This document shows, piece by piece, positions 3,001 to 20,675 of a stretch of DNA of 32,000 bases; the first letter of the stretch is position 1, and each line of letters begins with the position of its first letter. Source of the stretch: a bacterium (GTDB lineage: Bacteria > Bacteroidota > Ignavibacteria > UBA10030); NCBI GenBank assembly GCA_043803945.1, contig JAZDJN010000062.1:1-32000 (forward strand), in the 5' to 3' direction. A program made the position numbers and the translations under genes. The notes beneath the pieces are model-generated. The model saw only the letters and a list, made by a program, of their open reading frames with translations. It made no database searches and had not been told where the DNA came from.

Positions 3001-5476
3001 TTGTTTCAATTCCACTCTGGTTCGACTGAATCGAACAGTTACTTATTCAGGTGGTTCAATACTTATGAGTTTCAATTCCACTCTGGTTCGACTGAATCCA
3101 GCGACAGTAGAGGTTGCTGCTTCGTTAAGTCCGGTTTCAATTCCACTCTGGTTCGACTGAATCGCAAGGATCGAGATTAAAGTCACAAGAAACACAAATG
3201 TTTCAATTCCACTCTGGTTCGACTGAATCTTCTGCGGGTATTATTACAGCAGTGCAATTTGTAGGGTTTCAATTCCACTCTGGTTCGACTGAATCAGGTA
3301 ACGATTGACGATTCAGTAAAAGTGACGTATCGTTTCAATTCCACTCTGGTTCGACTGAATCATGTTCTCATAGTGCTGATACTGTTGCTCGTAACCGGTT
3401 TCAATTCCACTCTGGTTCGACTGAATCCGATGGCGATATAACTGAGACCTCATTCGATGCCTGGTTTCAATTCCACTCTGGTTCGACTGAATCGAGGATA
3501 GTAAACACATACAGTGGAATTGCTGACAAGTTTCAATTCCAATCTGGTTCGACTGAATCCCGTATAAGCCGTTACGACTAACTTATCTGAGCTTGGTTTC
3601 AATTCCACTCTGGTTCGACTGAATCGGGATTTTGTCCGATCGGTCAAGAGATTGTTTATACGTTTCAATTCCACTCTGGTTCGACTGAATCGGTTCAGAC
3701 TCGTGCGAAACATCTCACGAGTGCAATGTTTCAATTCCACTCTGGTTCGACTGAATCTACAGCATACACATTGCCCGTTGTAGATTCTGTCGCGTTTCAA
3801 TTCCACTCTGGTTCGACTGAATCGCTAAACTTCACAAGGTCATCTTTGCCTAACATCATGTTTCAATTCCACTCTGGTTCGACTGAATCATTGCTTCTTG
3901 ATATGGAGCACCGTTGACTGATACAGTTTCAATTCCACTCTGGTTCGACTGAATCACTTCGGTGTCGAAGGCGAGTATGCTGTTCTTGTTAGTTTCAATT
4001 CCACTCTGGTTCGACTGAATCCTGAGTGACGCAAGCATTGATTATCTCTGTGAGAAGTTTCAATTCCACTCTGGTTCGACTGAATCCATCCAATCAAATT
4101 TGCCTACGATATCTAATGCACAGTTTCAATTCCACTCTGGTTCGACTGAATCTTTGTATTGTTTTATCTTCAATAGATTGAGTCACCTGTTTCAATTCCA
4201 CTCTGGTTCGACTGAATCTCCGTTAATAGACCATCTCACATTAATTGTACAATCGTTTCAATTCCACTCTGGTTCGACTGAATCGGAGGATTTCGGTATA
4301 GATACTGTATCCCATATCGTGTTTCAATTCCACTCTGGTTCGACTGAATCCCGCCCCAAAGGCATTGACCGTCGTGGCCGTCGCAGTTTCAATTCCACTC
4401 TGGTTCGACTGAATCGTAGAACCGATAATCCAATTCGACAGATTTTGAGCTGGTTTCAATTCCACTCTGGTTCGACTGAATCAAACATTTGAGCATCCAG
4501 CCACCTTTCCCGAATTATGTTTCAATTCCACTCTGGTTCGACTGAATCTATATTCGTGATACTGCCTGTATTTCTTTGCTTCGTAGTTTCAATTCCACTC
4601 TGGTTCGACTGAATCTGATGCTCGCTGATAGTTCTGCGTTGACTACTTTCCGTTTCAATTCCACTCTGGTTCGACTGAATCTGTATCTCTTCTAAAGCAT
4701 TAGCCTGACCCTTTGCAGTTTCAATTCCACTCTGGTTCGACTGAATCTACTTTTTAACGAGAGGAATGTATTTTGTGGATGTTGTTTCAATTCCACTCTG
4801 GTTCGACTGAATCAGGGATTTCTGGGCAAGTTCAGAGTTGTCACAAGATGTTTCAATTCCACTCTGGTTCGACTGAATCATCTGTTCTATATACATTTGG
4901 AACGCCCGCTACAGGGTTTCAATTCCACTCTGGTTCGACTGAATCAATAAAAATTCAACTGAGCCTGACATCGTTAAGGTAGTTTCAATTCCACTCTGGT
5001 TCGACTGAATCCAAAAATGTGTTACTGAATCGAGGATACTTATTTACGTTTCAATTCCACTCTGGTTCGACTGAATCGCGCACAAGCCACAAGTGACATT
5101 TTTGTCGTCAAACCGTTTCAATTCCACTCTGGTTCGACTGAATCCCACACTCGTAACATTCGAGAGTAGAGAAATATCGAGGTTTCAATTCCACTCTGGT
5201 TCGACTGAATCTTGTATCTCTTCTAAAGCATTAGCCTGACCCTTTGCAGTTTCAATTCCACTCTGGTTCGACTGAATCAGTCAAGGATAAAGACCGTTGA
5301 GCCATCTATTCTCAGTTTCAATTCCACTCTGGTTCGACTGAATCGAGATCGGATCGTTTTATGGTGGGACACTTTGGCACGTTTCAATTCCACTCTGGTT
5401 CGACTGAATCACCAGCGTGTCAATCGAAACAACCTGCTTTGCAATCGTTTCAATTCCACTCTGGTTCGACTGAATC
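1..5476 (-). CRISPR. CRISPR array, 83 repeats of 30 nt with 35-37 nt spacers; continues beyond the left window edge
   Basis: The unit [A/G]TTTCAATTCCACTCTGGTTCGACTGAATC recurs 83 times (first full copy 31-60, last 5447-5476) with a 65-67 nt period, separated by spacers that are all different except one re-acquired pair. Positions 1-30 are a partial spacer. The reverse complement GATTCAGTCGAACCAGAGTGGAATTGAAAC ends in ATTGAAAC, the 8-nt crRNA 5' handle typical of Cas6-processed repeats. The cas operon and the canonical repeat form lie at the right end and variant repeats at the left end, so transcription is inferred on the minus strand. Confidence 0.99.
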
Positions 5477-5576
5477 CCGCTAAAAACCCCCTAAAAAATG
5501 CCGCGCTCAGCGGTTATATTACTACTCCAATCGTCATCCTATCATTATGCAAAAACACAGGGGGTCTGACGACTTA
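5477..5576 (-). promoter_or_regulatory. CRISPR leader between the cas2 stop and the first repeat
   Basis: These are 100 A/T-rich nt between the cas2 stop (5577) and the leader-proximal repeat. The region contains a 7-bp inverted repeat ACCCCCT (5486-5492) / AGGGGGT (5559-5565) and a small hairpin CCGC-gctca-GCGG (5501-5513). The polarity follows from the repeat-variant gradient and cas orientation. I could not recognise a promoter consensus with confidence. Confidence 0.6.
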
Positions 5577-5840
5577 TTACAACACGGTCTCGCTTCCTCC
5601 TTTTTCTGTTCCTATGATCTTCTTTTCCATGCGCGATTCGTCCTCAAATTGATAAATTATTACCGAGTCTTTCTCTAGATTGATCTTCTTCTTCAATCCT
5701 ATTTCCATCTCCTTATACTTTCCCTCAGTCAACCCCCCTTCGAATACACTGTTTTGCACCCAATTCAGATATCCGCGTAAATACTTCAGCACTTTTACGA
5801 CACGTTTTTCTTCAATATCATACACCACTATCACATACAT
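5577..5840 (-). CDS. cas2: CRISPR-associated endoribonuclease Cas2
   Basis: 87 aa. MYVIVVYDI...VQNSVFEG...DSVIIYQF matches the Cas2 ferredoxin-fold pattern. It is the last gene of the operon, directly upstream of the leader. Confidence 0.95.
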   Translation of the reverse strand: MYVIVVYDIEEKRVVKVLKYLRGYLNWVQNSVFEGGLTEGKYKEMEIGLKKKINLEKDSVIIYQFEDESRMEKKIIGTEKGGSETVL

Positions 5841-5862
5841 TATTTTATACCTCTTCGTCGAT

Positions 5863-5907
5863 GAAGGTCACCTTCGGCTGTGATCTATCTAGAGAAGGTG
5901 ACCTTCT
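5863..5907. repeat. REP-A doublet (inverted pair of palindromic units) in the cas1/cas2 intergenic gap
   Basis: GAAGGTCACCTTC (5863-5875) and its exact reverse complement GAAGGTGACCTTC (5895-5907) are separated by 19 nt. The pair fills the gap between the cas1 stop (5909) and the cas2 start (5840). Confidence 0.85.
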
Positions 5908-5908
5908 A

Positions 5909-7060
5909 TTACCACCACGCCCGAAATGCTTTGTACTCTTCGCCGGAAGTTATATGGCGTACTAACTTGTATGCTTCCAACCGAATCAAATGACGGTACG
6001 AAACATTTCTGCCTAATGCACGGTGCTTGATGGTCGTCTTCAACCGCTCGTCGTATTCCTGTACAATAATTTTCCTCCCCGACTCTTCCAAATAGCAGCA
6101 ATTCAATTCCGCCTTAAAATGCTTTTCCTGAATTTGCTTTGCATTCAACAACCGAAAGATCATTCGATCCGCCAACAATGGCTTAAATATTTCAGCCAAA
6201 TCTAAAGCCAATGAATAGCGTCGTTCACCAGGTCCGTGCAAATAACTTACTGTCGGTTCCAGGTGAGTATGATAGATTTCGCTCAACACCGTGGAATATA
6301 CCAAACCGTTAGCAAACGAAATGAGTGCATTGATCGCATTATCAGGTGGATGTTTCACCCTTTTATCCAGCGCAAATTCCTGCCCCACAATTTGACCCCA
6401 ACAATTATAATAACGGTCCCGTATATTACCTTCCACTCCCATCAATTCTTTGGTCGTATCAGTGCGTGCAATGCCATCCCGTAGGTTTTCTATCTCTTCA
6501 ATCTCCGCTGTAAAGTCTATCGACTTCTCTTCCGTTCCTTTCGATGGCTTCGAATAGTATTGTAGGTTTTTGACAATGTTGTATGATGCTGCATCTATGA
6601 ACTCCCGCGCAATCATCAACCGCCTGTGTGTATCAAGATACGCCCTCACCTGCTCCACGACGGTGAACCCCGACGGCAAGTAGTCACGCGGAATGAAGCT
6701 GCCTGCATAATGTCCGTAATAATTAAACAGGTGCAGCGGAATATGATGCTGAGACAGGAAATTGAAGAATTTGCTGTTGTAATCCATCTCACCGAAACAA
6801 TAGAACGCTTCAATATCCTGCACAGGCAATGGCTTACGTGTTACTCTTCCGGTGTCCGGGTTTTTTTCACTCTCTTCCGTAAAGCCGGCAAGAATCTCTT
6901 CATCAATACCGGGATCGATGTCAGTGGAAATATCAGATGGCGGATTTCGGATAGCAGATTCTTCTTGGGGGTTAGCAGGTTTTGACACAGGTTCAAAGAA
7001 GATGGTATTATCTTTTCTTCTCAACCTGCCGGATGACATTATGTAATAAGGTCGTTTCAT
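5909..7060 (-). CDS. cas1: CRISPR-associated integrase Cas1, with an extra acidic insertion in the N-terminal domain
   Basis: 383 aa. It has the N-terminal SGRLRRKDNTIFFE and LFNYYGHYAGSF motifs, and the helical catalytic domain motifs NALISFANGL and SYLHGPGERRYSLALDLAEIFKP typical of Cas1. About 40-50 extra residues (roughly aa 25-74) lie between the first beta strands. Confidence 0.96.
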   Translation of the reverse strand: MKRPYYIMSSGRLRRKDNTIFFEPVSKPANPQEESAIRNPPSDISTDIDPGIDEEILAGFTEESEKNPDTGRVTRKPLPVQDIEAFYCFGEMDYNSKFFNFLSQHHIPLHLFNYYGHYAGSFIPRDYLPSGFTVVEQVRAYLDTHRRLMIAREFIDAASYNIVKNLQYYSKPSKGTEEKSIDFTAEIEEIENLRDGIARTDTTKELMGVEGNIRDRYYNCWGQIVGQEFALDKRVKHPPDNAINALISFANGLVYSTVLSEIYHTHLEPTVSYLHGPGERRYSLALDLAEIFKPLLADRMIFRLLNAKQIQEKHFKAELNCCYLEESGRKIIVQEYDERLKTTIKHRALGRNVSYRHLIRLEAYKLVRHITSGEEYKAFRAWW

Positions 7061-7066
7061 TTAAAT

Positions 7067-7164
7067 CGGATAGCAGATATCAAATAACAGATGACAAAAA
7101 ACAGATGACAGATGACGGATGACAAATAACAAACGACAAATGACAAATAAATAATAGCAAATTG
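7067..7164. repeat. Tandem array of 14 in-register degenerate heptamers (consensus CARATRA)
   Basis: CGGATAG CAGATAT CAAATAA CAGATGA CAAAAAA CAGATGA CAGATGA CGGATGA CAAATAA CAAACGA CAAATGA CAAATAA ATAATAG CAAATTG, with no register slip. CGGATAGCAGA (7067-7077) is the exact reverse complement of TCTGCTATCCG (7605-7615). Confidence 0.9.
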
Positions 7165-7173
7165 AATTCATAA

Positions 7174-7539
7174 TCATATAGAACGGCTGAGAAATGTTAT
7201 AAATCCGGCTGTTTGATTTATGATCGAGACACTGAGAGTGAATGCCTCCTCAAATTCGGATTGTGAGATATATTGCAGATCGAGTGCAACATAGAGTTGA
7301 CTTCTCAATTCTCCGACAGAACCTTTTGCATGATACAGGAAAGCGATGAACTCCTTTTTCGTGTGTCGTTCGTAACCCTCGGCGATATTAGACATCACGG
7401 AAACCGCTGATCGCTGCATCTGATCTTTCAGACCGTAATCGGAAGACAATTTTCCTTTTGCCGTTAATCTATAGATTATCGATGTAAGCTTCCGTGCATC
7501 CTGCCAGACAGGCATATCTTCAAATCGTTTAAACTTCAT
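7174..7539 (-). CDS. Four-helix-bundle protein (23S rRNA intervening-sequence protein family, PF05635/TIGR02436-like)
   Basis: 121 aa. WQDARKL...RSAVSVMSNIAEGYER...EFIAFLYHAKGSVGELRSQL is the signature of the IVS-encoded four-helix-bundle family. It lies between cas4 and cas1 on the same strand. Confidence 0.88.
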   Translation of the reverse strand: MKFKRFEDMPVWQDARKLTSIIYRLTAKGKLSSDYGLKDQMQRSAVSVMSNIAEGYERHTKKEFIAFLYHAKGSVGELRSQLYVALDLQYISQSEFEEAFTLSVSIINQTAGFITFLSRSI

Positions 7540-7570
7540 TTTGTTCCTTTTTATTATCAGTCTTTCGCAA

Positions 7571-7689
7571 TCTGTTATTCGCTATTAGCATTCTGCTTTT
7601 GTTTTCTGCTATCCGCTATTTGCTATCTGTCATTTTACTTATACGCTATCTGTCATATGCAATCCGTTATTCGTTATCTGCCATTTTAT
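7571..7689. repeat. Degenerate heptamer array (YYGYYAT), inverted relative to 7067-7164
   Basis: The words CTGCTAT CCGCTAT TTGCTAT CTGTCAT ... CTGTCAT ... CCGTTAT TCGTTAT CTGCCAT run with one 2-nt register slip. They are the reverse complement of the ATRRCRR words in the left array. Together the two arrays bracket the four-helix-bundle gene. Confidence 0.85.
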
Positions 7690-8202
7690 TTATACCCAGC
7701 AAAGCTCAAAATAACTGCACATCTTACAAAAGCGTCTCGATTTCTTTTCTGGTGCAGATGCGGACTCGACAACTTCTTCGATCTTTTTCAGCACTTCGAT
7801 TATTTCTTCTTCCGTTTGTTCGTTTAACTCTACAGATACCTTTTGTCTTAACTTCGGATAATCGAGTTCTCCTTTCAATCCCGACACTCCTTTTTGTTTG
7901 AGATACCATAAGTAATACAACACCTGCCACCGATGCGCTTCTTCAAGGCTGTCGGACTTCTTCACCTCGTGTAACACACCGTTCTTACTATCGATCCAAT
8001 CAATCACAATTGCGTTGTCAATCTCGATCTGTTTTTCTTTCCGTGCATAGCTTGATTCATCTATGAGCTTACCCAAGAGAACGGTATCAGACGTATGCTC
8101 CATAACCAAACCACGCGAGAATAGCCACAGTTTACGCTTGCACACAAAATAATAATTTAAATGTGTGCCGGATATATTGTGCCTGAAGGTTTCCTTCATC
8201 AT
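7690..8202 (-). CDS. cas4: CRISPR-associated exonuclease Cas4
   Basis: 170 aa. An N-terminal Cys in YYFVCKRKLW plus a C-terminal C-x2-C-x5-C (CKMCSYFELC) gives the Cas4 four-Cys cluster pattern. A RecB-like core is present (IDWID ... LHEVKKS). The first codons are encoded by a REP-A arm. Confidence 0.92.
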   Translation of the reverse strand: MMKETFRHNISGTHLNYYFVCKRKLWLFSRGLVMEHTSDTVLLGKLIDESSYARKEKQIEIDNAIVIDWIDSKNGVLHEVKKSDSLEEAHRWQVLYYLWYLKQKGVSGLKGELDYPKLRQKVSVELNEQTEEEIIEVLKKIEEVVESASAPEKKSRRFCKMCSYFELCWV

Positions 8203-8230
8203 AGGTTTAGTCAGAAAGAAGGAAACCTTC
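8185..8230. repeat. REP-A doublet spanning the RAYT stop / cas4 start junction
   Basis: GAAGGTTTCCTTC (8185-8197) and its reverse complement GAAGGAAACCTTC (8218-8230) are separated by 20 nt. The left arm encodes cas4 residues KETF. The right arm encodes the RAYT C-terminus (VEGFLL). Confidence 0.85.
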
Positions 8231-8830
8231 TACATAAGGTAACACTCTTTTCCAGTAATCTTTCTCTGCCCGCTCATCTTTCAACACCTGCTGCACAAAT
8301 TCTATATAATCCTCGCCCAAATCAGCAAAAGGTTTCCTTCCGCTTGTTAAAGGCTTCCTTCTGTTAGGAATAACCTTAGTTGAAGGAAGCCTTTTACCCA
8401 GGTACTCTACAAAGTTCGAAAACTTCCACTCCTCCGGTTCCCGCACTAATCCCGCCCTCACCGGATTCAAATGAATATAACACGCCACGTCCTGCACGGC
8501 ATCTTCCGGAACAGACTTATAACGAAATGGACCCTGAAACAAATGCCCGATATGCCCATACTTTAAATTGTATCGCTTTGCGGCAGATGTCGCCAACGCA
8601 CCCATCATATCCGACAAACAACCGCCCTGTTTCTGCAGAGCAAGGATGTGGTAATGATTCGGCATCAACGCGTACGCTGGCACAAGGACAGAATATTTAA
8701 CGGCAAGTGATTTCATCTTCCTAATAAACGCTTCATAATCCGATGCATCGGCAAAGATACGCTCTTTATCGTTCCCACGGTTATATACATGGTAAAACCG
8801 ATCATCTTCTATTTTTTCTTCTCTGTTCAT
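8207..8830 (-). CDS. REP-associated tyrosine transposase (RAYT) / IS200-like Y1 HUH transposase
   Basis: 207 aa. It has the HUH motif in MPNHYHIL, and the YIHLNPVRAGLV and EEWKFSNF segments typical of the PF01797 branch that contains RAYTs. REP-A doublets flank it on both sides. Its stop is 4 nt from the cas4 start, on the same strand. Confidence 0.85.
   Translation of the reverse strand: MNREEKIEDDRFYHVYNRGNDKERIFADASDYEAFIRKMKSLAVKYSVLVPAYALMPNHYHILALQKQGGCLSDMMGALATSAAKRYNLKYGHIGHLFQGPFRYKSVPEDAVQDVACYIHLNPVRAGLVREPEEWKFSNFVEYLGKRLPSTKVIPNRRKPLTSGRKPFADLGEDYIEFVQQVLKDERAEKDYWKRVLPYVEGFLLSD
8349..8394. repeat. REP-A-like doublet inside the 3' part of the RAYT ORF
   Basis: AAAGGCTTCCTTC (8349-8361) and its exact reverse complement GAAGGAAGCCTTT (8382-8394) are separated by 20 nt. 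It has the same arm length, spacing and GAAGG/CCTTC core as the intergenic doublets. Confidence 0.7.
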
Positions 8831-8852
8831 ATCTTTTATAGAAGGTGTAGCG

Positions 8853-8897
8853 GAAGGTTACCTTCTGCTTATTCGTGCTTAGTTGAAGGTAACCTTC
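8853..8897. repeat. REP-A doublet between cas7 and the RAYT gene
   Basis: GAAGGTTACCTTC (8853-8865) and GAAGGTAACCTTC (8885-8897) are separated by 19 nt. An additional partial arm AGAAGGTG lies at 8840-8847. Confidence 0.85.
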
Positions 8898-8927
8898 AAC
8901 CGAGGGACGAGAAATTCTTTAGCTATG

Positions 8928-9986
8928 TTATACTTGTCTTTCATAGTCGTATGCCAAAAGCATTTCCTTCAATTTGTTCTCTGCGTCATCCAATGCATTT
9001 GCCGTTCCATGCACACCTTGGATATATCCGTCACAAGGAAGAGCTATGAACAAATCCGTTCCAACTGTATCGTCAATAATAGGAATTGCATGTGGTTTCT
9101 CTGTTTCCTCTGAAAGTTTAGCACGTATTGCGCTTGCTACTTTGTTTGCGTTGTCGCTGATAGCAATAGCAAGCGTTTCCATTAGACTAAACGTGCGTGA
9201 TTGATTACTGGTAATTCTCCAATTAAGAATGCCTTTGGCAAGAGCATTAATAATTTCATTTCTTTTCTTTTTGGGACATATCAGACAACTACCGAAAGCA
9301 TTCTTAGATTCTTTCCAACCATTATCTCGGAGTTCTTTTCCAATATCATCCGTTATTTCACGTTCGTGTTTATTCAATGACACAGAAAAGAGCGTACGTA
9401 TATCTATTGCAATGTCGTACACAAATAGTCCTGCAGCTCTTGTGTTATCTTGAATAAAATTCCTGCGTGTAAGAGATATTTTTTTGTCTTCAAGAAATTT
9501 ATTGATCTCTACTTCTGACAGTTCTTTTCCGTTTGCATCACGCACTTTTACGGGATGAATATCGGGATTGCTGCTGCGATCAAATGTTAAATTCTCTCTT
9601 GCGACACTGCATAAAAGAGGATGTAATGCACGCATAGCGGAGATAGATAATGGGCTTCGTCTCTTAACTGGTGTTTCTCCAGCTTGAGCTCTCATCCAAC
9701 CTCCAAGCAATTGGTCTGTATATTTAGGATCACAAGGTGACCAAGGTTCTCCCTCACCCAAGCCGCCTTTTTCTTTTATTATTTTATTGAAAGTTATCGG
9801 TGCTTGTTGCTCTCCTAACAATTCCAAGATAGAATCTAATGCTGAACGCTTAACTTGTTGACCACTTGAATAAGGAACATACTTCCCAAATTGACTATCA
9901 TAGTATGTCTTTTGTCCTTCTTGGACACAAAACACTGTATGTTCGGCATGTCGAAGCCCGCGAAGATAAATAAATGGTGATCCCAT
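8928..9986 (-). CDS. cas7: Cas7 backbone subunit (Cst2/DevR/Csh2-like RAMP)
   Basis: 352 aa. VPYSSGQQVKRSALDSI resembles the conserved (V/I)SxQxxKRxxR segment of type I Cas7 proteins. It sits directly downstream of the large subunit. An AAGGAG Shine-Dalgarno lies about 7 nt upstream of the ATG. Confidence 0.8.
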   Translation of the reverse strand: MGSPFIYLRGLRHAEHTVFCVQEGQKTYYDSQFGKYVPYSSGQQVKRSALDSILELLGEQQAPITFNKIIKEKGGLGEGEPWSPCDPKYTDQLLGGWMRAQAGETPVKRRSPLSISAMRALHPLLCSVARENLTFDRSSNPDIHPVKVRDANGKELSEVEINKFLEDKKISLTRRNFIQDNTRAAGLFVYDIAIDIRTLFSVSLNKHEREITDDIGKELRDNGWKESKNAFGSCLICPKKKRNEIINALAKGILNWRITSNQSRTFSLMETLAIAISDNANKVASAIRAKLSEETEKPHAIPIIDDTVGTDLFIALPCDGYIQGVHGTANALDDAENKLKEMLLAYDYERQV

Positions 9987-10019
9987 GTTGGTTCTCCTTA
10001 TTTAAAGTTGTTTTTACTA

Positions 10020-11366
10020 TCAATTGGGTAATGCATATTTGAAACGCATCAGCGTTACAAAAAGCGGCACATTATCGACTGCAATATTCTCCATTAACTC
10101 ATGAACAAGAGTATTACATACTTCCCCCATCGTTGTTGGCTCTTCTTCCACAAGTTGAGTAAGCCGATCAATCAACTCTTTGCGATTTCGGGAAGACAAT
10201 AGCTCTTTTATTTCGTTATCACGCTTCACAGTTCCCTTCCTTCCTCCTTTTTCATACTTTCGAAACGCTTGAGCGGCTTTTTCTGCTAAACCAAGAAGAT
10301 TTTTGTTATTTAACATAGCGATCACCCATGTAATGTAAATTGAATAGTTAATTTTAGATTTTTCATCATCCTTAAGTTTTGGCATCTCATTTGAACTGGA
10401 TCTACCAGGCATATATTTCCACAAATCTTTTGGTTCTATAGCTTTTAAACCAATTGTTCCTTGTTCGCATGCACGTGAAAAAGGATATTGAGTTTCATAC
10501 AAAGCAACCATTTGCTTTATGCCCACAGAATCACTCTTTTTAAATATTTTATCATAGAATTCCCAAAACTTATTTACCTCCGGTAAATTAAGATTAATAA
10601 AACCAAGGGTTACGTATTTCTGTTTATCATATATATATCTCGAACTAAAAATAGTAACGTTCTCTTTCGGAAATATGCTCGACAATAAAAACAACATCTT
10701 AATCCAGCTCTGCTGTTTTAGAGCATAGTTAGCTTTTCGTTTTTCGCTGGTTTCTTTTTCTACATATTCATCCAAGAGAAATTTCTTAACTATTTTGTCT
10801 TTATTAAAAGTATGGTCAAGCCAAACACTATTCCATAGATCAATCTCATTTGGTTTTAAATCCAGCACTTTTGAGTTCAAATGTTTTCGATATTCAGACC
10901 AACCTGAATAAATCGTCCAAAGCAACTTTTCATTGTTCATATACCATACTTGTTTCCCCTCTACTTCTATCCCAAAGCCAGCCCCAATCCATGAAGAATA
11001 TATACTTTCTTTGTCCATAGGAAGAGTTAAAGATGATACTTGTCCTGAAGTATCAAAAAGGTCATTAGCAGCCGGGAACCCTATTGCAAAGCTACTATCT
11101 GGAACATCTTCTTCGATTTTTTTATTTAATTTTTCAAGTTTACGTTTTTGCTCATCTTCAAATGTTTTTATTCCCTTTCTTTCTTTAGCAGGAAGTTTCT
11201 GAACAAAAGGAGAGTTAACAATCCATTTAAAATACTTCTTATGGTTATAGAATTCTTCAAAAACTTCTTTTTTAAAGAATAATTCTGCAGATAATCTTTT
11301 ATTTTTCTTTTTATTATATATTTCTAAAAATCGCTGCCCAATAAACGATATGTACATAGCTTTCAC
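10020..11366 (-). CDS. cas8: Candidate Cascade large subunit (Cas8-like), highly divergent
   Basis: 448 aa, Lys-rich and more AT-rich than its neighbours, with no motif I can name. The call rests on position (between cas3 and cas7), size, and a helical C-terminal roughly 100 aa. The track start at 11366 is GTG, 3 nt after the cas3 stop. The ATG at 11357, preceded by AAGGTGA, is a likelier start. Confidence 0.5.
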   Translation of the reverse strand: MKAMYISFIGQRFLEIYNKKKNKRLSAELFFKKEVFEEFYNHKKYFKWIVNSPFVQKLPAKERKGIKTFEDEQKRKLEKLNKKIEEDVPDSSFAIGFPAANDLFDTSGQVSSLTLPMDKESIYSSWIGAGFGIEVEGKQVWYMNNEKLLWTIYSGWSEYRKHLNSKVLDLKPNEIDLWNSVWLDHTFNKDKIVKKFLLDEYVEKETSEKRKANYALKQQSWIKMLFLLSSIFPKENVTIFSSRYIYDKQKYVTLGFINLNLPEVNKFWEFYDKIFKKSDSVGIKQMVALYETQYPFSRACEQGTIGLKAIEPKDLWKYMPGRSSSNEMPKLKDDEKSKINYSIYITWVIAMLNNKNLLGLAEKAAQAFRKYEKGGRKGTVKRDNEIKELLSSRNRKELIDRLTQLVEEEPTTMGEVCNTLVHELMENIAVDNVPLFVTLMRFKYALPN

Positions 11367-11369
11367 CTT

Positions 11370-13505
11370 TTAGATTACAGTATCAATTTCTTTCCATTCT
11401 AAACCTACCGACGGACTATACAATTCGTCATGGACAATAATTGGGGACGTTCCATATTTTGAATATCCATAATTTGTGAACTTACGGAACCTTGCCGTTC
11501 GTGGAATCGGTATTTCCAGACTGATTCGTTGTTCGCTGTTTCCCTTTTCATATTGCTCTAAATCTGAATATCGAATCGCTGTTGCTGATTCAATGTTCAA
11601 TGCTTCCATTAGAACAGAAGAGGGGAAATGGCAAAGTTCCGTTAAAAGAAACTCATCCCTTTCCCATACTAAATGAGTATTAATGGAAATCTCTTTGAGA
11701 GTTGGAAACACTTCATCAATTATCTTTTGCAAATCACGCTCGTGTAATACTTCGTTATCCGGTAACTGCGCAAAACTTCGTTCTAGCAACTCTTGTGCAT
11801 AGGGCAAACATGCTTTGCTCTCATCAGGCGGTTCGATAACATATACTGGCTTTAATATCCTGTTCCGAACACTCTCCTCGGTTCTACGCCTGTTGATGCG
11901 TCCGAACCGTTGAATGAGACTGTCAAACGGAGCACACTCGGTTATCATCACATCAAAGCTAATGTCCAAGCTTACTTCCACTACTTGCGTTGAAACGACA
12001 ATGCAGGCTTTTGAAGAGCAATCGAATTTTTCCCGAAGTTCTTTTTCTAATTCTGCCCTATCCTGCCGTCGGAATCGGCTATGAAGAAGCATTTGCGGCA
12101 TATCGGGGAAAAGTTCACAGCATTCCTTGAAGCGTTTCTGTGCGGCATCTACTCTATTGCACACGATGAGGACTTTTTTGTTCTCTTGTAGAGCTTGTAG
12201 AATAATGCTCCGTGTTTCATCAAATGAAGAAATCTTATGAACAATGTGTCTATCGAACGTAACAAGCGTATTTTGAGGCAATGACACGGTGTATGTTTGT
12301 TTCTTCCCTCCAAGAAGTTTTAATATTTTCTTTTGCAACACCAACGGCATTGTTGCACTGCCGACATGAACTCGGCAACGCAGTTTTAACAACGCTTTGA
12401 TGATTTCTAAAACCATAGACTGCGCGATCTCGGAGTACGAATGAATTTCATCCAGGATGACATCATTCCCCATAATATCAACAGCAAGCGCTTCGAAACC
12501 ACGCGTTCCACAAATCAATGATGCCAATTGATGAGGTGTTAAGACTTTAATGGCGGCACCGACTTTATCTTGTAAAACTTTTTCTTCATACGATTCGCTT
12601 CCTTTCACTACCAATCTTGACGATGCATGAAGCACTCGTATTTCAGCTTGATTCGGAAGCTGCTGCCGAAATCGTTCGTACATAGCATTGATGGACGCTT
12701 GAAAAGGTAATGTATAAAAGACCCTGCTACTGCAACGGCGCATAAGAAAATCTGTTTTCCCCGATCCCGTTGGTGCAACAACAAGAGTATGCGGTATCTT
12801 ATCGTCGGCAGAAAGAAGGGATAAAGGAAATAGAGTATTCGACCGATTATCAAATGCTGAGAGATCGGGAGTTTGGAATATCGTTGAAATACGGACATTT
12901 GTTTTTTCGTTCAATGCAGAGGCAAAATGGTCTGCCCCAACAAGCACGCCTTTCCATTTCGACCAACCAAGTGATTTTTTTGAGCAATATTCAATAGTAT
13001 ACCGATATGCCCTCAATGCTTCATCTTTCGAAATGCTTCGCGTAGAAATACCAACATCGGACAGAATAGCAAGAGCTACAGACGACCATTCTTCCCAAGG
13101 ATCAACATGCCGTTCAAATATCTCATCGCTTCCTTCTATATTTTCTAAATCCAAGATTCCCTGTTCACGCGCATCCTGGCGAATGGAACGATGATGAGCA
13201 ACGATCATATCAACAAGTGCATTCCAATCTTTTTGCGGGAATAATGGAAGGAATAAAAGTGATGCAATTTCATGCCGGAAAGTAATGCCAAAATTATCGT
13301 TCCTATTATTTTTCAACTTTCGCTGGAAATCCGGATGCGACTTGCCAACATCATGCAAAAGCCCTCCGAGCCGTGCAAGCCTTTTATCCAATCCTGCCGA
13401 TTCGGCAACTCTTTCTGCTACAGAAGCAACATGACGTAAATGATCGGTTAAAAGTGTTCCACCATTGTTCACACTCTTAGCGTATATGTCTTGAAGCGGA
13501 TTCAT
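11370..13505 (-). CDS. cas3: Cas3 HD nuclease-helicase fusion
   Basis: 711 aa. The N-terminal HD domain has HLRHV, LLHDVGK, FRHEIAS and VAHHR. The SF2 helicase has motif I APTGSGKTD, motif II DEIHSY and motif VI-like QRFGRINRR. Confidence 0.97.
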   Translation of the reverse strand: MNPLQDIYAKSVNNGGTLLTDHLRHVASVAERVAESAGLDKRLARLGGLLHDVGKSHPDFQRKLKNNRNDNFGITFRHEIASLLFLPLFPQKDWNALVDMIVAHHRSIRQDAREQGILDLENIEGSDEIFERHVDPWEEWSSVALAILSDVGISTRSISKDEALRAYRYTIEYCSKKSLGWSKWKGVLVGADHFASALNEKTNVRISTIFQTPDLSAFDNRSNTLFPLSLLSADDKIPHTLVVAPTGSGKTDFLMRRCSSRVFYTLPFQASINAMYERFRQQLPNQAEIRVLHASSRLVVKGSESYEEKVLQDKVGAAIKVLTPHQLASLICGTRGFEALAVDIMGNDVILDEIHSYSEIAQSMVLEIIKALLKLRCRVHVGSATMPLVLQKKILKLLGGKKQTYTVSLPQNTLVTFDRHIVHKISSFDETRSIILQALQENKKVLIVCNRVDAAQKRFKECCELFPDMPQMLLHSRFRRQDRAELEKELREKFDCSSKACIVVSTQVVEVSLDISFDVMITECAPFDSLIQRFGRINRRRTEESVRNRILKPVYVIEPPDESKACLPYAQELLERSFAQLPDNEVLHERDLQKIIDEVFPTLKEISINTHLVWERDEFLLTELCHFPSSVLMEALNIESATAIRYSDLEQYEKGNSEQRISLEIPIPRTARFRKFTNYGYSKYGTSPIIVHDELYSPSVGLEWKEIDTVI

Positions 13506-14125
13506 CGAGTAGATATCTGTGATGCTAATGGGTTATTACCAACAATATGAAGCCATCCATACATCGGTTTGCTGTTATCGAAACGATTAAAGCCGACAAT
13601 GAAGGATTGCTTAGTTTTTCCAAAGCGTAATTCAAAGCCGTTAAAACCATTATCCGGTTCGTCAAATTTTTCTTCGTTTATTTTTAAGATGTGTTCGTTT
13701 GTCGGAAATTCGGCAGGCAACAGAACATCTTCATTGCGGCACAAACAAATGTGCTGCTGTATTGCCCGTTCGGCAAATTCAAGTTTGGATAAAGCTATGT
13801 AAAGAATCGGATTCAGCAGAACACCACGTATTAAAATTGACCGTGGCCTATCTATAACAACAATATTCTCTTTCTTTTTAACGGTAATATTTATACCACG
13901 CGGCTGTGTTTGTTCTTGTTGTTTTGATAGTCCGATATAAGTCAAACGATGTCGCACAATTCTTGGATCGTATTTTTTTTGTTCCAGCAATTCTGGGAAC
14001 AGTTTCTTTTCTATTCCTTCAATTATCGAAGGTGTTAGAAAGTTTTGGCTATAGGTTTCACTATCCCTCACAGCTGTCCAAGGTTTAATGAAACCGAATG
14101 GTCCTGAATACTTCACGATATACAT
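13502..14125 (-). CDS. cas5: Cas5 RAMP subunit
   Basis: 207 aa. The N-terminal GPFGFIKPW...TYSQNFLTPSIIEGI matches the Cas5 signature (F..P....sY..PtpSai.G). Its stop overlaps the cas3 start (ATGA). An AAGGAGA Shine-Dalgarno lies upstream. Confidence 0.8.
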   Translation of the reverse strand: MYIVKYSGPFGFIKPWTAVRDSETYSQNFLTPSIIEGIEKKLFPELLEQKKYDPRIVRHRLTYIGLSKQQEQTQPRGINITVKKKENIVVIDRPRSILIRGVLLNPILYIALSKLEFAERAIQQHICLCRNEDVLLPAEFPTNEHILKINEEKFDEPDNGFNGFELRFGKTKQSFIVGFNRFDNSKPMYGWLHIVGNNPLASQISTR

Positions 14126-14149
14126 TTTTCGTCTCCTTCTGGCATGGGC

Positions 14150-14195
14150 GAAGGTTACCTTCCACTATGTTAAGCTATGCGAGAAGGTAACCTTC
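14150..14195. repeat. REP-A doublet between cas6 and cas5
   Basis: GAAGGTTACCTTC (14150-14162) and GAAGGTAACCTTC (14183-14195) are separated by 20 nt. The arms are identical to those at 8853-8897, in the same relative order. Confidence 0.85.
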
Positions 14196-14203
14196 TGGCA
14201 AAT

Positions 14204-14860
14204 TTAGCAGAGCGCTCCAAAACCGCTTCCTGTTGAATGTCCGACTCCAACTTCCCAAGCAAATGCGACCGCCTCTGGTGTTCCTTCTATCATTACCGGG
14301 CAAACACTTGCTCTATTTTGAATACCTTTAATTGTGACAAGCCGTGTTTTACACTTTTCGTATGTCCTGTCAAAGAATACTTTTATCCCTTTGTTAACTA
14401 TTCCAGCTTTTTCCAATTTTGTTTTGAGCGTTGCCGTCAACACATCATCAACTCCAGAATCAGAAAACAGTAGATGCTTTATTCCTTGACCATCATATTT
14501 TTTTACAAGAACAGGTGTTGCGGTTAAAAATCTTTGATGTTCGCTGAATTTTGGTGTACCTACCATTTGTACATCGGTAATCCTCATACCGCAACAAACG
14601 TTTGGTTCCGAAAGAAGACCACTCATAACTTTTTTTGCCAGAGCCTCATTCCAGCAACTGATGAACCACTTTGCTCCTTTAGGAAAATTCAGCATGTCTT
14701 TTTCTTTTTTCCCTCCCGATAACCAGCTTAGAGAATAAAGACTGATGTCGTCATGTATTTCATTCGGACCAAGCCATTTATGAAATGCACCGATCAAAAA
14801 ATGCTGGTACTCAAAAGGTACAGGTTCAATATTCGGTGTTAAATTAAAATAGAGTCGCAT
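14204..14860 (-). CDS. cas6: Cas6 pre-crRNA endoribonuclease
   Basis: 218 aa. The C-terminal glycine-rich loop GVGHSTGSGFGAL is typical of Cas6. It is the first gene of the operon, with an AGGAGAA Shine-Dalgarno upstream. Confidence 0.85.
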   Translation of the reverse strand: MRLYFNLTPNIEPVPFEYQHFLIGAFHKWLGPNEIHDDISLYSLSWLSGGKKEKDMLNFPKGAKWFISCWNEALAKKVMSGLLSEPNVCCGMRITDVQMVGTPKFSEHQRFLTATPVLVKKYDGQGIKHLLFSDSGVDDVLTATLKTKLEKAGIVNKGIKVFFDRTYEKCKTRLVTIKGIQNRASVCPVMIEGTPEAVAFAWEVGVGHSTGSGFGALC

Positions 14861-15533
14861 CTTTGTTTTCTCCTAGTATCTCGTTATGAGCCAAGTTGTA
14901 AGCATTATCGTCTCTCGAATAATTTTCATCGCCAGATCATATACATCATTGAAATCCAAACTACTAATCAATAAAAAACCACTCTCAATACCTACCGGCA
15001 TATCAAGTGGTCATTTATTTGTGCATTTAATCACGCGTCCTCCCGAATGAAGAAGTATTCGGTTCTGTCGGCATCGAAATGTATGTAATTTTCGATCTAT
15101 CTTCAACGCTTTAACCATACCACACTTTTGTCACTCTTCTGTGACTCTTTTTGATAGATTTGCCACTTTGTTCCCAAAGTAAGTCGGTAAAAATTTACCC
15201 AATAATTATTCCGACACCACCCTTTCGACACCGCTTTACATCGAAGTAGAAATATCCACGAACCTCTATCTACCGATGATTCTAACGAGGCTCAAGGGCG
15301 TTATCGGTAAACAACCTACCATCGGACCAGGCGGTCACCATGAGTATACCAGCTATTGTATTCTGGAAACAATGGATGGCGAGATGGAAGGGACATATAT
15401 TATGCAACGCACCGAAGACAACCTCTTTACTGTGAGAATCCCAAAATTCCTCCTCAGAGCACACGCCAACTGATTGACAAGCTTTTGCTCTCCCTCTTCA
15501 CCTGCCTTCGCACTTCGTGCTCCGGCAGGCAGG

Positions 15534-15631
15534 CTCTTCATGCTTTACTCTTCACTATTTCACATTTACAATTCCCCATTTACAATTCTTCTTTTCCTTT
15601 TCAATATTTCCTTTTTCGTCGTACCTTATCC
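15534..15631. repeat. Pyrimidine-rich degenerate heptamer array (about 12-14 units), without an adjacent partner arm
   Basis: CTCTTCA TGCTTTA CTCTTCA CTATTTC ACATTTA CAATTCC CCATTTA CAATTCT TCTTTTC CTTTTCA ATATTTC CTTTTTC ... in 7-nt register. The reverse complement (GGAATTG TAAATG ...) resembles the words of the purine-rich array at 17554-17651. Confidence 0.7.
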
Positions 15632-15637
15632 TCCGCA

Positions 15638-16146
15638 ATGAAGCTCTTCTCTCAACACTATGGCGATGGGCCTCCACTGATAATCCTCCATGGATTGTTT
15701 GACTCCTCAGATAATTGGCACACACTCGCACGACGATTCAGCCAGAACTTTCGGGTCTTCACACTCGATCTGCGCAACCATGGCAGGTCTCCTCATTCAG
15801 AAGATATTAATTATGATCTGATGCGAAATGATATTCTTGAGTTTATGGAAGAACAGAGCCTGTCATTGATTCATCTCATGGGACACTCAATTGGAAGATG
15901 AATCTTGATGCCATTTTTCAGAACTATCCTTCGATTAATCGTTCCATTTCAGCTCCGACACCGTTCCCAAAACCAGTATTGTTCATTCGGGGCGGAGAAT
16001 CTGGATATATACTCGATTCCGATCTTGAATCTATCAGGACACTATTCCCGCAAGCCAATGTATTGACGATTCCGAAGGCCGGCCATTGGGTTCACGCCGA
16101 CGCACCGGACGAATTGTATCGCTCAGTACTCCAATTTCTCCTCTAA
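15638..16146 (+). pseudogene. Alpha/beta hydrolase (YbfF-like esterase) with an internal out-of-frame deletion
   Basis: The N-terminal piece 15638-15901 (LIILHGLFDSSDNWHTLA...LDLRNHGRS...MGHSIGR-stop) stops right after the nucleophile elbow GHSxG. The C-terminal piece 15898-16146 (PVLFIRGGESGYI...AGHWVHADAP) is in another frame. Together they give about 170 aa against about 255 aa expected, so roughly 85 central residues are missing. Confidence 0.75.
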
Positions 16147-16290
16147 ACTGTTCATTCCTCAAATTCCATAGATTTCTGTGGTAAGTTTCTTTGTGGAATT
16201 TTCTCTTTCAATTTTCACCTTTTTCACGTTTATTAGCCGACAAGAGATTTGTAATAACCAGCATCCCCTTCACACAATGGGAGCATCGCC

Positions 16291-17541
16291 ATGAACAATA
16301 TACTACTCGAACGCTTTTTACGTTATGTACAGATTGACACTCAATCGCAGGAGGACTCTGAAGCTTACCCCAGCACAAGTAAACAATTCGATCTGCTGAA
16401 CCTCCTTGTAAAGGAGCTCCAGGAACTCGGGTTGAGCGATGTTTCCATCGACAAGTATGGTTATGTGATGGCAACCATTCCGAGCAACCTCTCCTCTTCC
16501 CATCCGGCGTACGGCAAAGTCCCTGCAGTCGGTTTCATTGCCCACGTCGATACATCACCCTCGACATCAGGTACAAATGTGAAGCCGCAGGTTATCGAGA
16601 AGTACGCGGGCGGCGATCTCGTGCTTCCGGCCGATCCTGCTGTAATCATTAAGGAAATAGAAAACCCCGAACTAAAAAAATGTATTGGCGGCACAATCAT
16701 TACCGCCGATGGGACGACTCTCCTCGGAGCGGATAACAAAGCGGGTATCGCTATCATTATGACGGCAGCACAGACTTTGCTGCAAAATCCCTCCATCCTT
16801 CACGGCGATGTGAAAATTGGATTTACACCCGATGAAGAAGTTGGCGCCGGTACAAAATATTTTGATCTCAAAAAGTTCGGTGCACAGTTTGCCTACACGG
16901 TCGATGGCGACGCGGCCGGTGAGTTGAATAAAGAAACGTTCAGTGCTAATTCAGCCATCATCACCATCCATGGCCGGAACATCCACCCGGGAACGGCAAA
17001 AGGAATTATGGTCAACTCCATCCGAACGCTTGCCGACATCATTGTCCGGCTGCCAAAAGACATGGCGCCAGAGACTACCGAGGGGTATGAGCCTTACATC
17101 CATCCCCATGCCATCAACGGAGAAGAAGCCAAATCGACGATGAAAATGCTGTTGAGGGATTTTCGAACTGAAGGACTTGACGAACTGAAGAAACGGTTGG
17201 AAGACATTATTGCCGAAGTTCAGCCGCTGCATCCGAAAGCAACAATCGAATTGCAGATTATTGAATCCTATCGCAATATGAAAGATGGACTCGACAAGGA
17301 TCAGCGCGTACTCGATTGTTTATGGGAAGCGACAAAGAGGAGTGGATTGGAACCAGAATGGGTACCGATCCGGGGCGGTACCGATGGTTCCCGCTTGACC
17401 GCCATGGGGCTGCCAACACCAAATATTTTTACCGGTGCAAAGAACTTCCACGGAAAAACCGAATGGGCCTCATTGGAGGGGATGATGAAATCTGTCGAAA
17501 CGGTTGTGAACCTGGCACAGGTTTGGGTGGAACGCAGTTGA
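16291..17541 (+). CDS. pepT: Peptidase T (tripeptide aminopeptidase, M20B)
   Basis: 416 aa. LLERFLRYVQIDTQS, FIAHVDTSP, LLGADNKAGIA and FTPDEEVG match the PepT pattern. Confidence 0.9.
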   Translation: MNNILLERFLRYVQIDTQSQEDSEAYPSTSKQFDLLNLLVKELQELGLSDVSIDKYGYVMATIPSNLSSSHPAYGKVPAVGFIAHVDTSPSTSGTNVKPQVIEKYAGGDLVLPADPAVIIKEIENPELKKCIGGTIITADGTTLLGADNKAGIAIIMTAAQTLLQNPSILHGDVKIGFTPDEEVGAGTKYFDLKKFGAQFAYTVDGDAAGELNKETFSANSAIITIHGRNIHPGTAKGIMVNSIRTLADIIVRLPKDMAPETTEGYEPYIHPHAINGEEAKSTMKMLLRDFRTEGLDELKKRLEDIIAEVQPLHPKATIELQIIESYRNMKDGLDKDQRVLDCLWEATKRSGLEPEWVPIRGGTDGSRLTAMGLPTPNIFTGAKNFHGKTEWASLEGMMKSVETVVNLAQVWVERS

Positions 17542-17553
17542 AAATGCGGAATT

Positions 17554-17728
17554 GGAAATGTTGATTAGGGAATGGGGAGGAAGGAGGAAGACGAGAGAGG
17601 TAAGAAGCAAAAAGGAAAAAGTGAGAAGTTAAAAGTGACAAAATGAGAGATCCTCTTTTTCCTCTCTCTGCTGTCATCATTCTTCTCTCACATCTCTTTT
17701 CCATCTCCCGTCTGCCTTCCACGGTCTA
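17554..17728. repeat. Gene-less dyad: 14 purine-rich heptamers abutting about 11 pyrimidine-rich heptamers
   Basis: The left arm is 17554-17651: GGAAATG TTGATTA GGGAATG GGGAGGA AGGAGGA AGACGAG AGAGGTA AGAAGCA AAAAGGA AAAAGTG AGAAGTT AAAAGTG ACAAAAT GAGAGAT. The right arm starts at 17652: CCTCTTT TTCCTCT CTCTGCT GTCATCA TTCTTCT CTCACAT CTCTTTT CCATCTC CCGTCTG CCTTCCA. The arms are partly complementary (GGAAGG 17579-17584 / CCTTCC 17715-17720; GTGAGAAG 17621-17628 / CTTCTCTCAC 17682-17691). Confidence 0.7.
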
Positions 17729-17769
17729 CCGCAATAAGTTCTTTGCTTTAAAAACAAAAAGGAGATCAT

Positions 17770-19773: not shown

Positions 19774-19783
19774 GTGCCCACGT

Positions 19784-19834
19784 GAGAAGTCTGTCTTCTC
19801 CCAAAGATCAATCTCTATTAGAAGACAGACTTCT
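19784..19834. repeat. REP-B doublet downstream of the OPT transporter gene
   Basis: GAGAAGTCTGTCTTCTC (19784-19800) and AGAAGACAGACTTCT (19820-19834) are inverted copies separated by 19 nt. Confidence 0.85.
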
Positions 19835-19919
19835 TATCATTGTCTTGCCCCATCTTTTCCACGGGGGTCCCTGACAGCCTGGCAAAAAGGAAGTCGGAAG
19901 GGTTTCTAATTTCACAAGG

Positions 19920-19998
19920 GAGTCAGAAACCACTTCCTGACTCTCTCAGGAATTATGAGGGATTATTTTAACAAGGGGGTCAGGAACCATTTCCTGAC
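19920..19998. repeat. Two tandem hairpin units upstream of RAYT-2
   Basis: GAGTCAGAAA-CCAC-TTCCTGACTC (19920-19943; 9 of 10 bp) and GTCAGGAA-CCAT-TTCCTGAC (19979-19998; 8 of 8 bp). Each is preceded by ACAAGGG(A/G)G, so this is a direct repeat of a hairpin unit of about 30 nt. Confidence 0.8.
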
Positions 19999-20043
19999 TC
20001 ATAGACAAGAATCGTTACTCATCACCTCAGGGAGGAGGCAGTT

Positions 20044-20595
20044 ATGGGTTTACGAGGAAGGCAACTAATCTCAAGCACCGACCATCTTTTTTTCGTTACC
20101 ACTACCGTAGTAAATTCCATTCGCATCTTTCAAGAGGATCGTTTCTGCTCTCTCCTGATCCAGAATATCAAGCACTACCAAAAACGGTATCAATTCGAGA
20201 TTTATGGATATGTTATTATGCCTTCTCATTTTCATTGGATCGTTGAAGTTGATCATCGATATGGCACTATCTCAGGAATTATGAGGGATTTGAAAAAATA
20301 TTCCGCGTGGGATATTATGGAGGCAGTAGAGAATGAACAGCGGTTAGACCTTCTCGAACAATTTCGTAATGCAGCAGCGGGATACAAAAACCAGCATCGA
20401 AAATTCTGGATGGATAGATTTGATGATGAAGTGATACACAATGAAGGGATGCTCCGTACCAAATTGGAGTATATTCATTACAATCCTGTAAAGGCGGGTC
20501 TTGTATTAAATCCTGAAGACTATCGCTATTCGAGTACAAGGAATTATATCTGCAATGATCATAGTATTCTTCAGGTGAAAACGGATTGGTGGTAA
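20044..20595 (+). CDS. Second REP-associated tyrosine transposase (RAYT) / IS200-like Y1 HUH transposase
   Basis: 183 aa. It has the HUH motif in MPSHFHWIV and the motifs YIHYNPVKAGLV and PEDYRYSS. It is flanked by REP-B doublets and by a 16-nt direct repeat GTCCCTGACAGCCTGG (19867-19882 and 20635-20650). Confidence 0.85.
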   Translation: MGLRGRQLISSTDHLFFVTTTVVNSIRIFQEDRFCSLLIQNIKHYQKRYQFEIYGYVIMPSHFHWIVEVDHRYGTISGIMRDLKKYSAWDIMEAVENEQRLDLLEQFRNAAAGYKNQHRKFWMDRFDDEVIHNEGMLRTKLEYIHYNPVKAGLVLNPEDYRYSSTRNYICNDHSILQVKTDWW

Positions 20596-20621
20596 CAGAA
20601 ATTTTAGTTTAAAAGAATCTA

Positions 20622-20645: not shown

Positions 20646-20675
20646 CCTGGTTGGAGGTTGGAAGATTCCGACTGC

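Follow-up and report, generated by a model that had tools for sequence, protein, structure and literature searches.

A type I-B CRISPR-Cas locus of the Cas8b6 kind with a published gene order and two passenger insertions

Gene content and subtype of the locus

The window analysed here, a stretch of 32,000 nucleotides (nt; positions 1 to 32,000 of contig JAZDJN010000062.1, assembly GCA_043803945.1), carries a type I CRISPR-Cas locus. Ten mechanically called open reading frames (ORFs) occupy the minus strand of positions 5477-14860 and are followed by a leader and a CRISPR array. The order is cas6, cas5, cas3, large subunit gene, cas7, a RAYT gene, cas4, a four-helix-bundle gene, cas1, cas2, leader and array (Table 1). 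We consider it very probable that this is an intact type I-B locus of the Cas8b6 (Bacteroides fragilis-type) variant, with a gene order that has already been published. The arrangement is not new because the type I-B profiles of PADLOC, the order of B. fragilis strain YCH46 and a published description (PMC5704556) all match. The I-B architecture is known, the host background is new, and two passenger genes have been inserted.

The order and family assignment of the genes on the minus strand, as proposed in an original prediction made from the sequence alone, agreed with the ORF listing and with matches in Pfam, NCBIfam and PADLOC. A fused HD-helicase Cas3 and a repeat ending in ATTGAAAC were likewise recovered, and the ORF listing of the locus contained no separate cas11 ORF, also as predicted. 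The stop codon of cas5 and the start codon of cas3 indeed share the sequence ATGA (...ACTCGATGAATCC...). The proposed 3-nt gap between cas3 and cas8, on the other hand, was an artefact of a mechanical GTG start at 11366. The methionine encoded by the ATG at 11357 (MY.S...) is the start of cas8 in every one of the 71 sequences aligned (70 homologues plus that of the window), and an AGGTGA Shine-Dalgarno-like motif sits ahead of this codon. As the homologues all start at the ATG and not at the GTG, the real gap is 12 nt. All eight cas ORFs are full length and every catalytic motif that was checked is intact. Cas3 retains the HD residues 50-51, APTGSGKT at 244 (Walker A), DEIH at 352, SAT at 383 and QRFGRINR at 532 (motif VI), and Cas4 keeps four cysteines at 21, 159, 162 and 168.

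Table 1. Coordinates of the cas genes, inserted genes and other features of the locus (aa, amino acids; bits, profile score)
Feature	Position	Strand	Description
cas6	14204-14860	-	218 aa, pre-crRNA endoribonuclease; TIGR01877 75.3 bits (cut-off 58.65); PADLOC Cas6b PDLC02101 288 bits, full length
cas5	13502-14125	-	207 aa; PADLOC PDLC01480 'Cas5, CAS-I-B effector_G5' 256 bits; PDLC02093 Cas5b 252 bits
cas3	11370-13505	-	711 aa; TIGR01587 209.7 bits; TIGR01596 76.3 bits; PADLOC Cas3b PDLC02079 978 bits
cas8b	10020-11357	-	445 aa from conserved ATG; mechanical ORF to GTG 11366 (448 aa); Cas8b6-kind large subunit
Cas8 N-terminal-domain cassette	10437-11264	-	residues ~32-307, exchangeable; from DNA comparison with L002, L003 and L023
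Cas11-like C-terminal helical bundle of Cas8	10020-10412	-	residues 316-445; AlphaFold2 helices 332-442
cas7	8928-9986	-	352 aa, backbone subunit; PADLOC Cas7b PDLC01493 553 bits, full length
RAYT	8207-8830	-	207 aa, inserted, non-cas; NF047646 63 bits (below cut-off of 80); PF01797 33 bits
cas4	7690-8202	-	170 aa; PF01930 194 bits; TIGR00372 98.6 bits; PADLOC Cas4b 221 bits
four-helix-bundle gene	7174-7539	-	121 aa, 23S rRNA-IVS protein family, inserted, non-cas; TIGR02436 111.6 bits; PF05635 119 bits
cas1	5909-7060	-	383 aa, I-B type; TIGR03641 cas1_HMARI 438.7 bits (cut-off 304.1); PADLOC Cas1b 467 bits
cas2	5577-5840	-	87 aa; TIGR01573 52 bits; PF09827 82 bits; PADLOC Cas2b 110 bits
leader	5477-5576	-	100 nt between cas2 stop and first repeat
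CRISPR array	31-5476	-	83 repeats of 30 nt, spacers of 35-37 nt, transcription from the 5476 side

The three profile libraries were run on all ten ORFs. Pfam and NCBIfam confirmed Cas6, the HD and helicase parts of Cas3, Cas4, Cas1, Cas2, the RAYT and the four-helix-bundle protein. They gave no match for the 207-aa Cas5 or for the 448-aa large subunit and only a weak, sub-threshold DevR match for the 352-aa Cas7; Pfam also found nothing in six Cas5 homologues. The original prediction had recognised no family motif in the large subunit either, as models of the Pfam and NCBIfam type do not cover this family. Since Cas5 and Cas8b6 are without models there and Cas7 is barely detected, readers and pipelines relying on these libraries will keep re-finding the family as odd. 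PADLOC, in contrast, placed all eight Cas proteins in I-B models over their full length. The sole PADLOC match of the large subunit was PDLC01511 ('Cas8b; CAS-I-B; effector_LS') with 395 bits, positions 1-416 of the 419 in this profile aligning with residues 4-446, and no Cas8c profile among the PADLOC models matched it. Cas3 reached 978 and 390 bits on Cas3b profiles versus 160 bits on Cas3c. Cas1 stayed below the cut-off of the I-C model (162.5 versus 385), of the Myxan model TIGR03983 (132.6 versus 358) and of the I-D models.

The canonical gene order of type I-B is cas6-cas8b-cas7-cas5-cas3-cas4-cas1-cas2, and that of type I-C, which is without cas6 and has its pre-crRNA processed by Cas5, is cas3-cas5-cas8c-cas7-cas4-cas1-cas2. 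The locus possesses a Cas8b-family large subunit, the signature of subtype I-B, an HD nuclease and a helicase fused in one Cas3 protein, a stand-alone Cas6, Cas7 and Cas5, and a Cas4-Cas1-Cas2 adaptation module with an I-B-type Cas1. With canonical I-B systems (Clostridium kluyveri, Haloferax or Thermotoga type; Cas8b1, Cas8b2) it thus shares the gene set, the lack of a separate cas11, the type of Cas1 and the end of the repeat, ATTGAAAC. It differs from them in that cas5 and cas3 precede cas8b and cas7, and in that its Cas8, Cas7 and Cas5 are too diverged for the I-B models of Pfam and NCBIfam. The textbook order, cas6-cas5-cas3-cas8b-cas7 being found in its place, is typical of I-B and not a defining property. 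The earlier description of the locus as I-B-like in content, with an order unlike that of textbook I-B or I-C, was therefore correct.

Two further known types have been considered as relatives. Like the Myxan-type I-B systems (Cas8b3/Cmx8; Cascade of Synechocystis PCC 6714, PMC11096372), the locus combines I-B features with a divergent large subunit and probably an internally encoded Cas11. Their large subunit has 70 kDa, whereas that of the window has about 52 kDa (calculated from 445 aa), and by sequence the Cas8, Cas7 and Cas5 proteins of the window match nothing in the PDB, which also covers the Cascade chains of Synechocystis if the searched copy contains them. The Myxan type, a candidate of the original prediction, is not borne out by Cas1 either, given its score on the Myxan model. 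As to the PGING/Csp type, NCBIfam gave no match for Cas5 and Cas8 and the weak DevR match for Cas7, the presence of Csp models in the release being unconfirmed.

It had been left open whether the locus is a catalogued variant or a new arrangement. In favour of a previously uncatalogued type I arrangement or subtype, neither Pfam nor NCBIfam has a model that recognises Cas5 or the large subunit, Cas7 is met by DevR weakly, and the large subunit bears the NCBI name 'hypothetical protein'. Moreover, a PDB sequence search with single proteins and family profiles of Cas8, Cas7 and Cas5 revealed no related chain; thus, there is no solved structure for the Cas8b6-type variant. Nevertheless, novelty is scarcely credible: I-B profiles that already exist cover the proteins in full and score highly, the family has thousands of members (the Cas7 family comprises 4563 clusters at E <= 1e-5), and the identical order of B. 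fragilis YCH46 was published in 2017 with a cas8b6 label (PMC5704556). The question is settled in favour of a catalogued arrangement by the full-length PADLOC I-B matches, the order in YCH46 and that article: Cas5, Cas7 and the product of 10020-11366 fall inside I-B profiles, and a reference locus shares their gene order. As a side observation, the large subunit is a 'hypothetical protein' in public records, in which Cas7 is now named (protein hits P0121-P0240).

A second explanation is that the effector module is a type I-C relative that gained cas6 and an I-B adaptation module, the I-B label being mere convention for this variant. The succession cas5...cas8-cas7-cas4-cas1-cas2 does resemble the I-C order (Desulfovibrio vulgaris or Bacillus halodurans type), and some variants of Cas8b stand nearer to Cas8a or Cas8c than to the other members of Cas8b (PMC13199841). 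A further trait probably shared with I-C systems is that Cas11 is made from within cas8. An AlphaFold2 model of Cas8 built from 71 sequences (pLDDT 89.6, pTM 0.88) combines an N-terminal part of alpha/beta type with a bundle of helices at the C-terminus (332-442). Its three best Foldseek matches in the PDB were type I-C Cascade chains (8dex_I, 8g9t_K and 7kha_I) of 417, 582 and 385 residues, lengths that fit a large subunit. These matches are weak, however, with E values from 0.036 to 0.79 and TM scores of about 0.2-0.25. The Cas7 model (pLDDT 86.4) showed no preference for I-C and matched Cas7 of I-A, I-E and I-B-CAST Cascades at E values of 1e-9 to 1e-7. In further contrast to I-C, the window has a full-length stand-alone cas6, its cas3 follows cas5 and precedes cas8 instead of opening the order, Cas3 scores higher on Cas3b, and Cas1 passes the I-B model while failing the I-C model. 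Taken together, we regard an I-C origin of the effector module as unlikely and assignment to type I-B as the better description.

The Bacteroides fragilis reference locus and gene order among relatives

The type IB locus of B. fragilis described by Tajkarimi and Wexler in 2017 (PMC5704556) consists of cas6 (TM1814), a hypothetical gene (cas5), cas3, two further hypothetical genes, cas4, cas1, cas2 and the array, an order that departs from the canon according to these authors. As relayed from Makarova et al. 2015 in that article, the three hypothetical genes are cas5, cas7 and cas8b6. Cas8b variants are not discussed in the 2025 classification update and its supplement.

The reference locus was reached from the B. 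fragilis leader printed in PMC5704556, which led to human-gut contigs, from these to Cas7 and finally to AP006841.1. Cas7 from a human-gut contig was identical to BAD49295.1 of strain YCH46, and the contigs encoding it include AP006841.1 (L020). The contigs with the B. fragilis I-B leader (L009, L011-L015, L017 and L018, from human-gut metagenomes) mostly hold the truncated cas6-cas5'-'cas1-cas2 form, as in PMC5704556; L018 retains cas7-cas4-cas1-cas2, with unrelated ORFs at the places expected for cas8 and cas3.

The YCH46 locus encodes Cas6 (223 aa), Cas5 (187), Cas3 (719), Cas8 (441), Cas7 (352), Cas4 (170), Cas1 (337) and Cas2 (87), followed by the array. Its cas5 of 564 bp and cas1 of 1014 bp have the lengths quoted in PMC5704556. 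The identical order, cas6-cas5-cas3-cas8b-cas7-cas4-cas1-cas2-leader-array, is found in the window, with similar protein sizes, an overlap of cas5 and cas3 and a gap of few nucleotides between cas3 and cas8 in both loci. The repeat ends in GGAATTGAAA(C/T) in the window and in all related loci compared, that of YCH46 included. YCH46 and window proteins match the same PADLOC profiles, both large subunits matching PDLC01511 only. The two large subunits align end to end (BLASTP, 33% identity, E 3e-70; hhalign probability 100%), Cas7 is 54% identical to BAD49295.1, and Cas5 52-53% identical to its B. fragilis counterpart. The two loci differ in their proteins, which are 33-54% identical, in repeat length (29 nt in YCH46, 30 nt in the window) and in host phylum, the closest loci to that of the window coming from Ignavibacteriales metagenome-assembled genomes (MAGs). 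The locus of the window is itself probably part of an Ignavibacteriota-like genome. Moreover, the RAYT, the four-helix-bundle gene and an N-terminal Cas1 insertion of about 47 aa are present in the window only. The latter is an acidic and proline-rich segment (residues ~25-75) that is extra relative to the 337-338-aa Cas1 proteins of B. fragilis and L004; it is mostly present too in the close relatives L002 and L023 (375 aa).

A synteny search had been suggested along with the prediction, and cas6-cas5-cas3-cas8-cas7 was indeed found in other genomes, B. fragilis YCH46 among them. A scan with a degenerate pattern of the large subunit, covering one genome per species, yielded three relatives (L001-L003), all from Ignavibacteriales or Ignavibacteriota MAGs. 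By tblastn, each of them has cas6-cas5-cas3-cas8-cas7-cas4-cas1-cas2 and lacks both the RAYT and the four-helix-bundle gene. The order is the same in the more distant relative L004 (L005 is a duplicate), whose 3.5-Mb contig also encodes SusD and glycoside hydrolases, in the more distant relative L006 (L007 is a partial duplicate) from a MAG labelled Bacillota, in L020 (L019, L021 and L022 are identical to it across the cas operon) and in L023. Eight of the eight distinct complete relatives fetched share the order of the cas genes, which is the conserved one in this family, and none of the eight carries the two inserted genes. Between the flank of the window (14900-32000) and the flanks of L001-L004, L006 and L023 no DNA similarity was found, so the locus sits in differing genomic contexts in its closest relatives.

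The arrangement itself adds a further case to an I-B architecture that is already published and catalogued, and as such matters little. The domain mosaicism of cas8 described below could guide experimental work on the Cas8b6 variant and is the only part that may deserve follow-up. In a literature search for experimental work on the Bacteroides-type I-B, we found no PAM (protospacer adjacent motif), structure or interference data for the Cas8b6 variant, and the ten I-B systems with PAM profiles in PMC13199841 are Cas8b1 to Cas8b3 only.

Mosaic structure of cas8

Comparison of the cas8 gene of the window (10020-11357) with the corresponding regions of L002 (9950-12450), L003 (7585-10080) and L023 (7080-9600) revealed abrupt changes of similarity within the gene. 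Relative to L002 and L003, DNA identity is about 90% through cas6, cas5, cas3 and the first ~31 codons of cas8. Over 11264-10437, corresponding to residues ~32-307 of Cas8, the DNA is unalignable (38-63%) and the proteins are 32% identical. Identity of 90-98% at the DNA level resumes from 10436 (L002) or 10454 (L003) and continues through the Cas8 C-terminal domain and cas7, the C-terminal domains being 88-89% identical at the protein level. The comparison with L023 is reversed. Here, the N-terminal domain of Cas8 is 95% identical and its DNA, at 93-100%, is more similar than the flanks, whereas identity is only 42-78% in the distal part of the C-terminal domain and in the initial two-thirds of cas7. 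An assembly chimera was considered as the source of this pattern and rejected, because the junction is also present, at 95% identity, in P0127, an independent contig.

Read from these DNA alignments, cas8 is a three-way recombination mosaic: its N-terminal domain forms an exchangeable cassette, and its Cas11-like C-terminal domain is inherited together with cas7. A similar discordance is seen among the 71 aligned Cas8 sequences: in 13 of the 30 pairs whose C-terminal domains are at least 80% identical, the N-terminal domains share 40% identity or less. The N-terminal domain of Cas8 reads the PAM in other type I systems. Extending the pattern to the whole family, we tentatively propose, with somewhat more doubt than confidence, that the Cas8b6 gene consists of two independently inherited modules, a swapped N-terminal domain of the PAM-reading type and a Cas11-like domain co-inherited with cas7, with the breakpoint just upstream of a conserved methionine.

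Of the 71 aligned sequences, 57 have this methionine, Met316 (codon 10410-10412), which stands just ahead of the C-terminal helical bundle; the recombination breakpoints lie 24-42 nt upstream of its codon. No clear Shine-Dalgarno motif precedes the codon. Internal translation of Cas11 has been documented in other I-B systems (PMC11096372, PMC13199841, PMC11899642). By analogy, Met316 is possibly a start site for a separately translated Cas11-like product. A literature search on recombination of Cas8 domains gave nothing relevant. If a swap of the N-terminal domain does alter PAM specificity or evade anti-CRISPRs, it would amount to a natural re-targeting of Cascade that leaves the rest of the complex untouched, and domain exchange in cas8 would be a design rule for engineering the abundant Cas8b6-type I-B variant.

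CRISPR array, inserted genes and predicted function

The repeat reads GATTCAGTCGAACCAGAGTGGAATTGAAAC on the transcribed strand, with ATTGAAAC as its 3' end. Because the window opens inside a spacer (bases 1-30), the array extends past the window start and the 83 repeats are a lower bound. Next to the leader, a block of 48 repeats (2342-5476) starts with G on the plus strand; 47 of them are identical and the sole deviating one (3530-3559) carries an internal substitution. The 35 repeats of the trailer-side block (31-2305) have a terminal variant, which is A on the plus strand and ...GAAAT in the RNA; a further C-to-A change occurs in five of these repeats (2011-2305). With variants restricted to the trailer side and uniform repeats next to the leader, the array has a polarity that fits a leader at 5477. 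One protospacer is represented twice, by spacers 4682-4717 (36 nt) and 5212-5248 (37 nt), which differ by one extra base at one end and lie eight repeat-spacer units apart near the leader. Since they are offset by 1 nt, the two spacers point to two independent acquisitions. The DNA through cas1, cas2, the leader and the first repeat is kept in L002 and L023 at 82-84% identity.

In a scan of 5300-15400 for sigma-70 promoters and terminators, counts did not exceed those of shuffled controls and no promoter could be called. Rfam, applied at gathering thresholds to the whole window, matched no family, CRISPR-DR models included. Neither self-targeting spacers nor spacers shared with related loci were found.

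Both insertions lie on the operon strand in intergenic spacers. The RAYT, a Y1 transposase, separates cas7 from cas4, which are adjacent in L002 and L023, and has GAAGGNNNCCTTC-type palindromes on both sides (~8831-8927 and ~8215-8440). A second Y1 transposase, 24% identical to the RAYT at 8207-8830, is encoded on the other strand 11 kb away (20044-20595). The four-helix-bundle gene, between cas4 and cas1, has degenerate heptamers in inverted arrays on either side (7055-7162 and 7555-7695), and the gene together with these arrays looks like a small mobile or structured cassette. The arrays are made of 7-nt and 14-nt units of the CAAATGA and ACAGATG types and form 45-nt arms that are 73% complementary.

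Two foreign genes inside an operon raise the question of whether the copy in the window is decaying or only partly functional. Such decay would agree with the separation of cas7 from cas4 by the RAYT and its palindromes and of cas4 from cas1 by the four-helix-bundle gene and its repeat arrays. It would also agree with the lack of either gene in any of the eight distinct complete relatives, and truncated versions of the system occur in B. fragilis strains. However, the evidence bearing on function is integrity throughout: the ORFs are full length, the motifs of Cas3 and Cas4 are intact, both insertions fell into intergenic spacers on the operon strand, and a long array with uniform leader-side repeats shows repeated acquisition near the leader. 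We therefore think decay improbable and prefer the reading of an intact I-B locus, likely working, by analogy to known systems, in ordinary type I-B interference and adaptation.

According to this analogy, the array would be transcribed from the leader and Cas6 would cleave the repeats 8 nt from their 3' ends, so that the CRISPR RNA keeps an 8-nt AUUGAAAC 5' handle. Cas5 would cap the 5' handle and multiple Cas7 subunits would coat the spacer part. The N-terminal domain of Cas8b would read the PAM, the Cas11-like C-terminal domain would form the belly of the complex, and extra copies of the latter may come from internal translation at Met316. Formation of a PAM-dependent R-loop would recruit the HD-helicase Cas3 and lead to degradation of the target, whereas Cas1, Cas2 and Cas4 would insert new spacers at the leader end.

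Several points weigh against the reading of an intact Cas8b6-type I-B locus. The 'cas8b6' label comes from PMC5704556. The Cas5 call has as its basis two PADLOC profiles together with homology to the gene of B. fragilis reported as cas5 (PMC5704556), and the fold matches of the Cas8 model are weak, with TM scores of at most 0.25. The whole array gave no protospacer match among 50,697 GenBank phages, nor did six spacer cores in IMG/VR, and hence no PAM or target could be inferred. Finally, the RAYT with its palindromes and the four-helix-bundle gene separate the effector part of the operon from cas1-cas2 and could lower transcription of the genes for adaptation.

Outside the operon, the flank of the window encodes peptidases, an OPT transporter and a SpoU methylase. 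Within 15356-16146, next to cas6, an alpha/beta-hydrolase ORF matches only positions 1-79 of a profile of 245 and directly adjoins a second, short ORF (15898-16146); the hydrolase gene is possibly a pseudogene with a frameshift.

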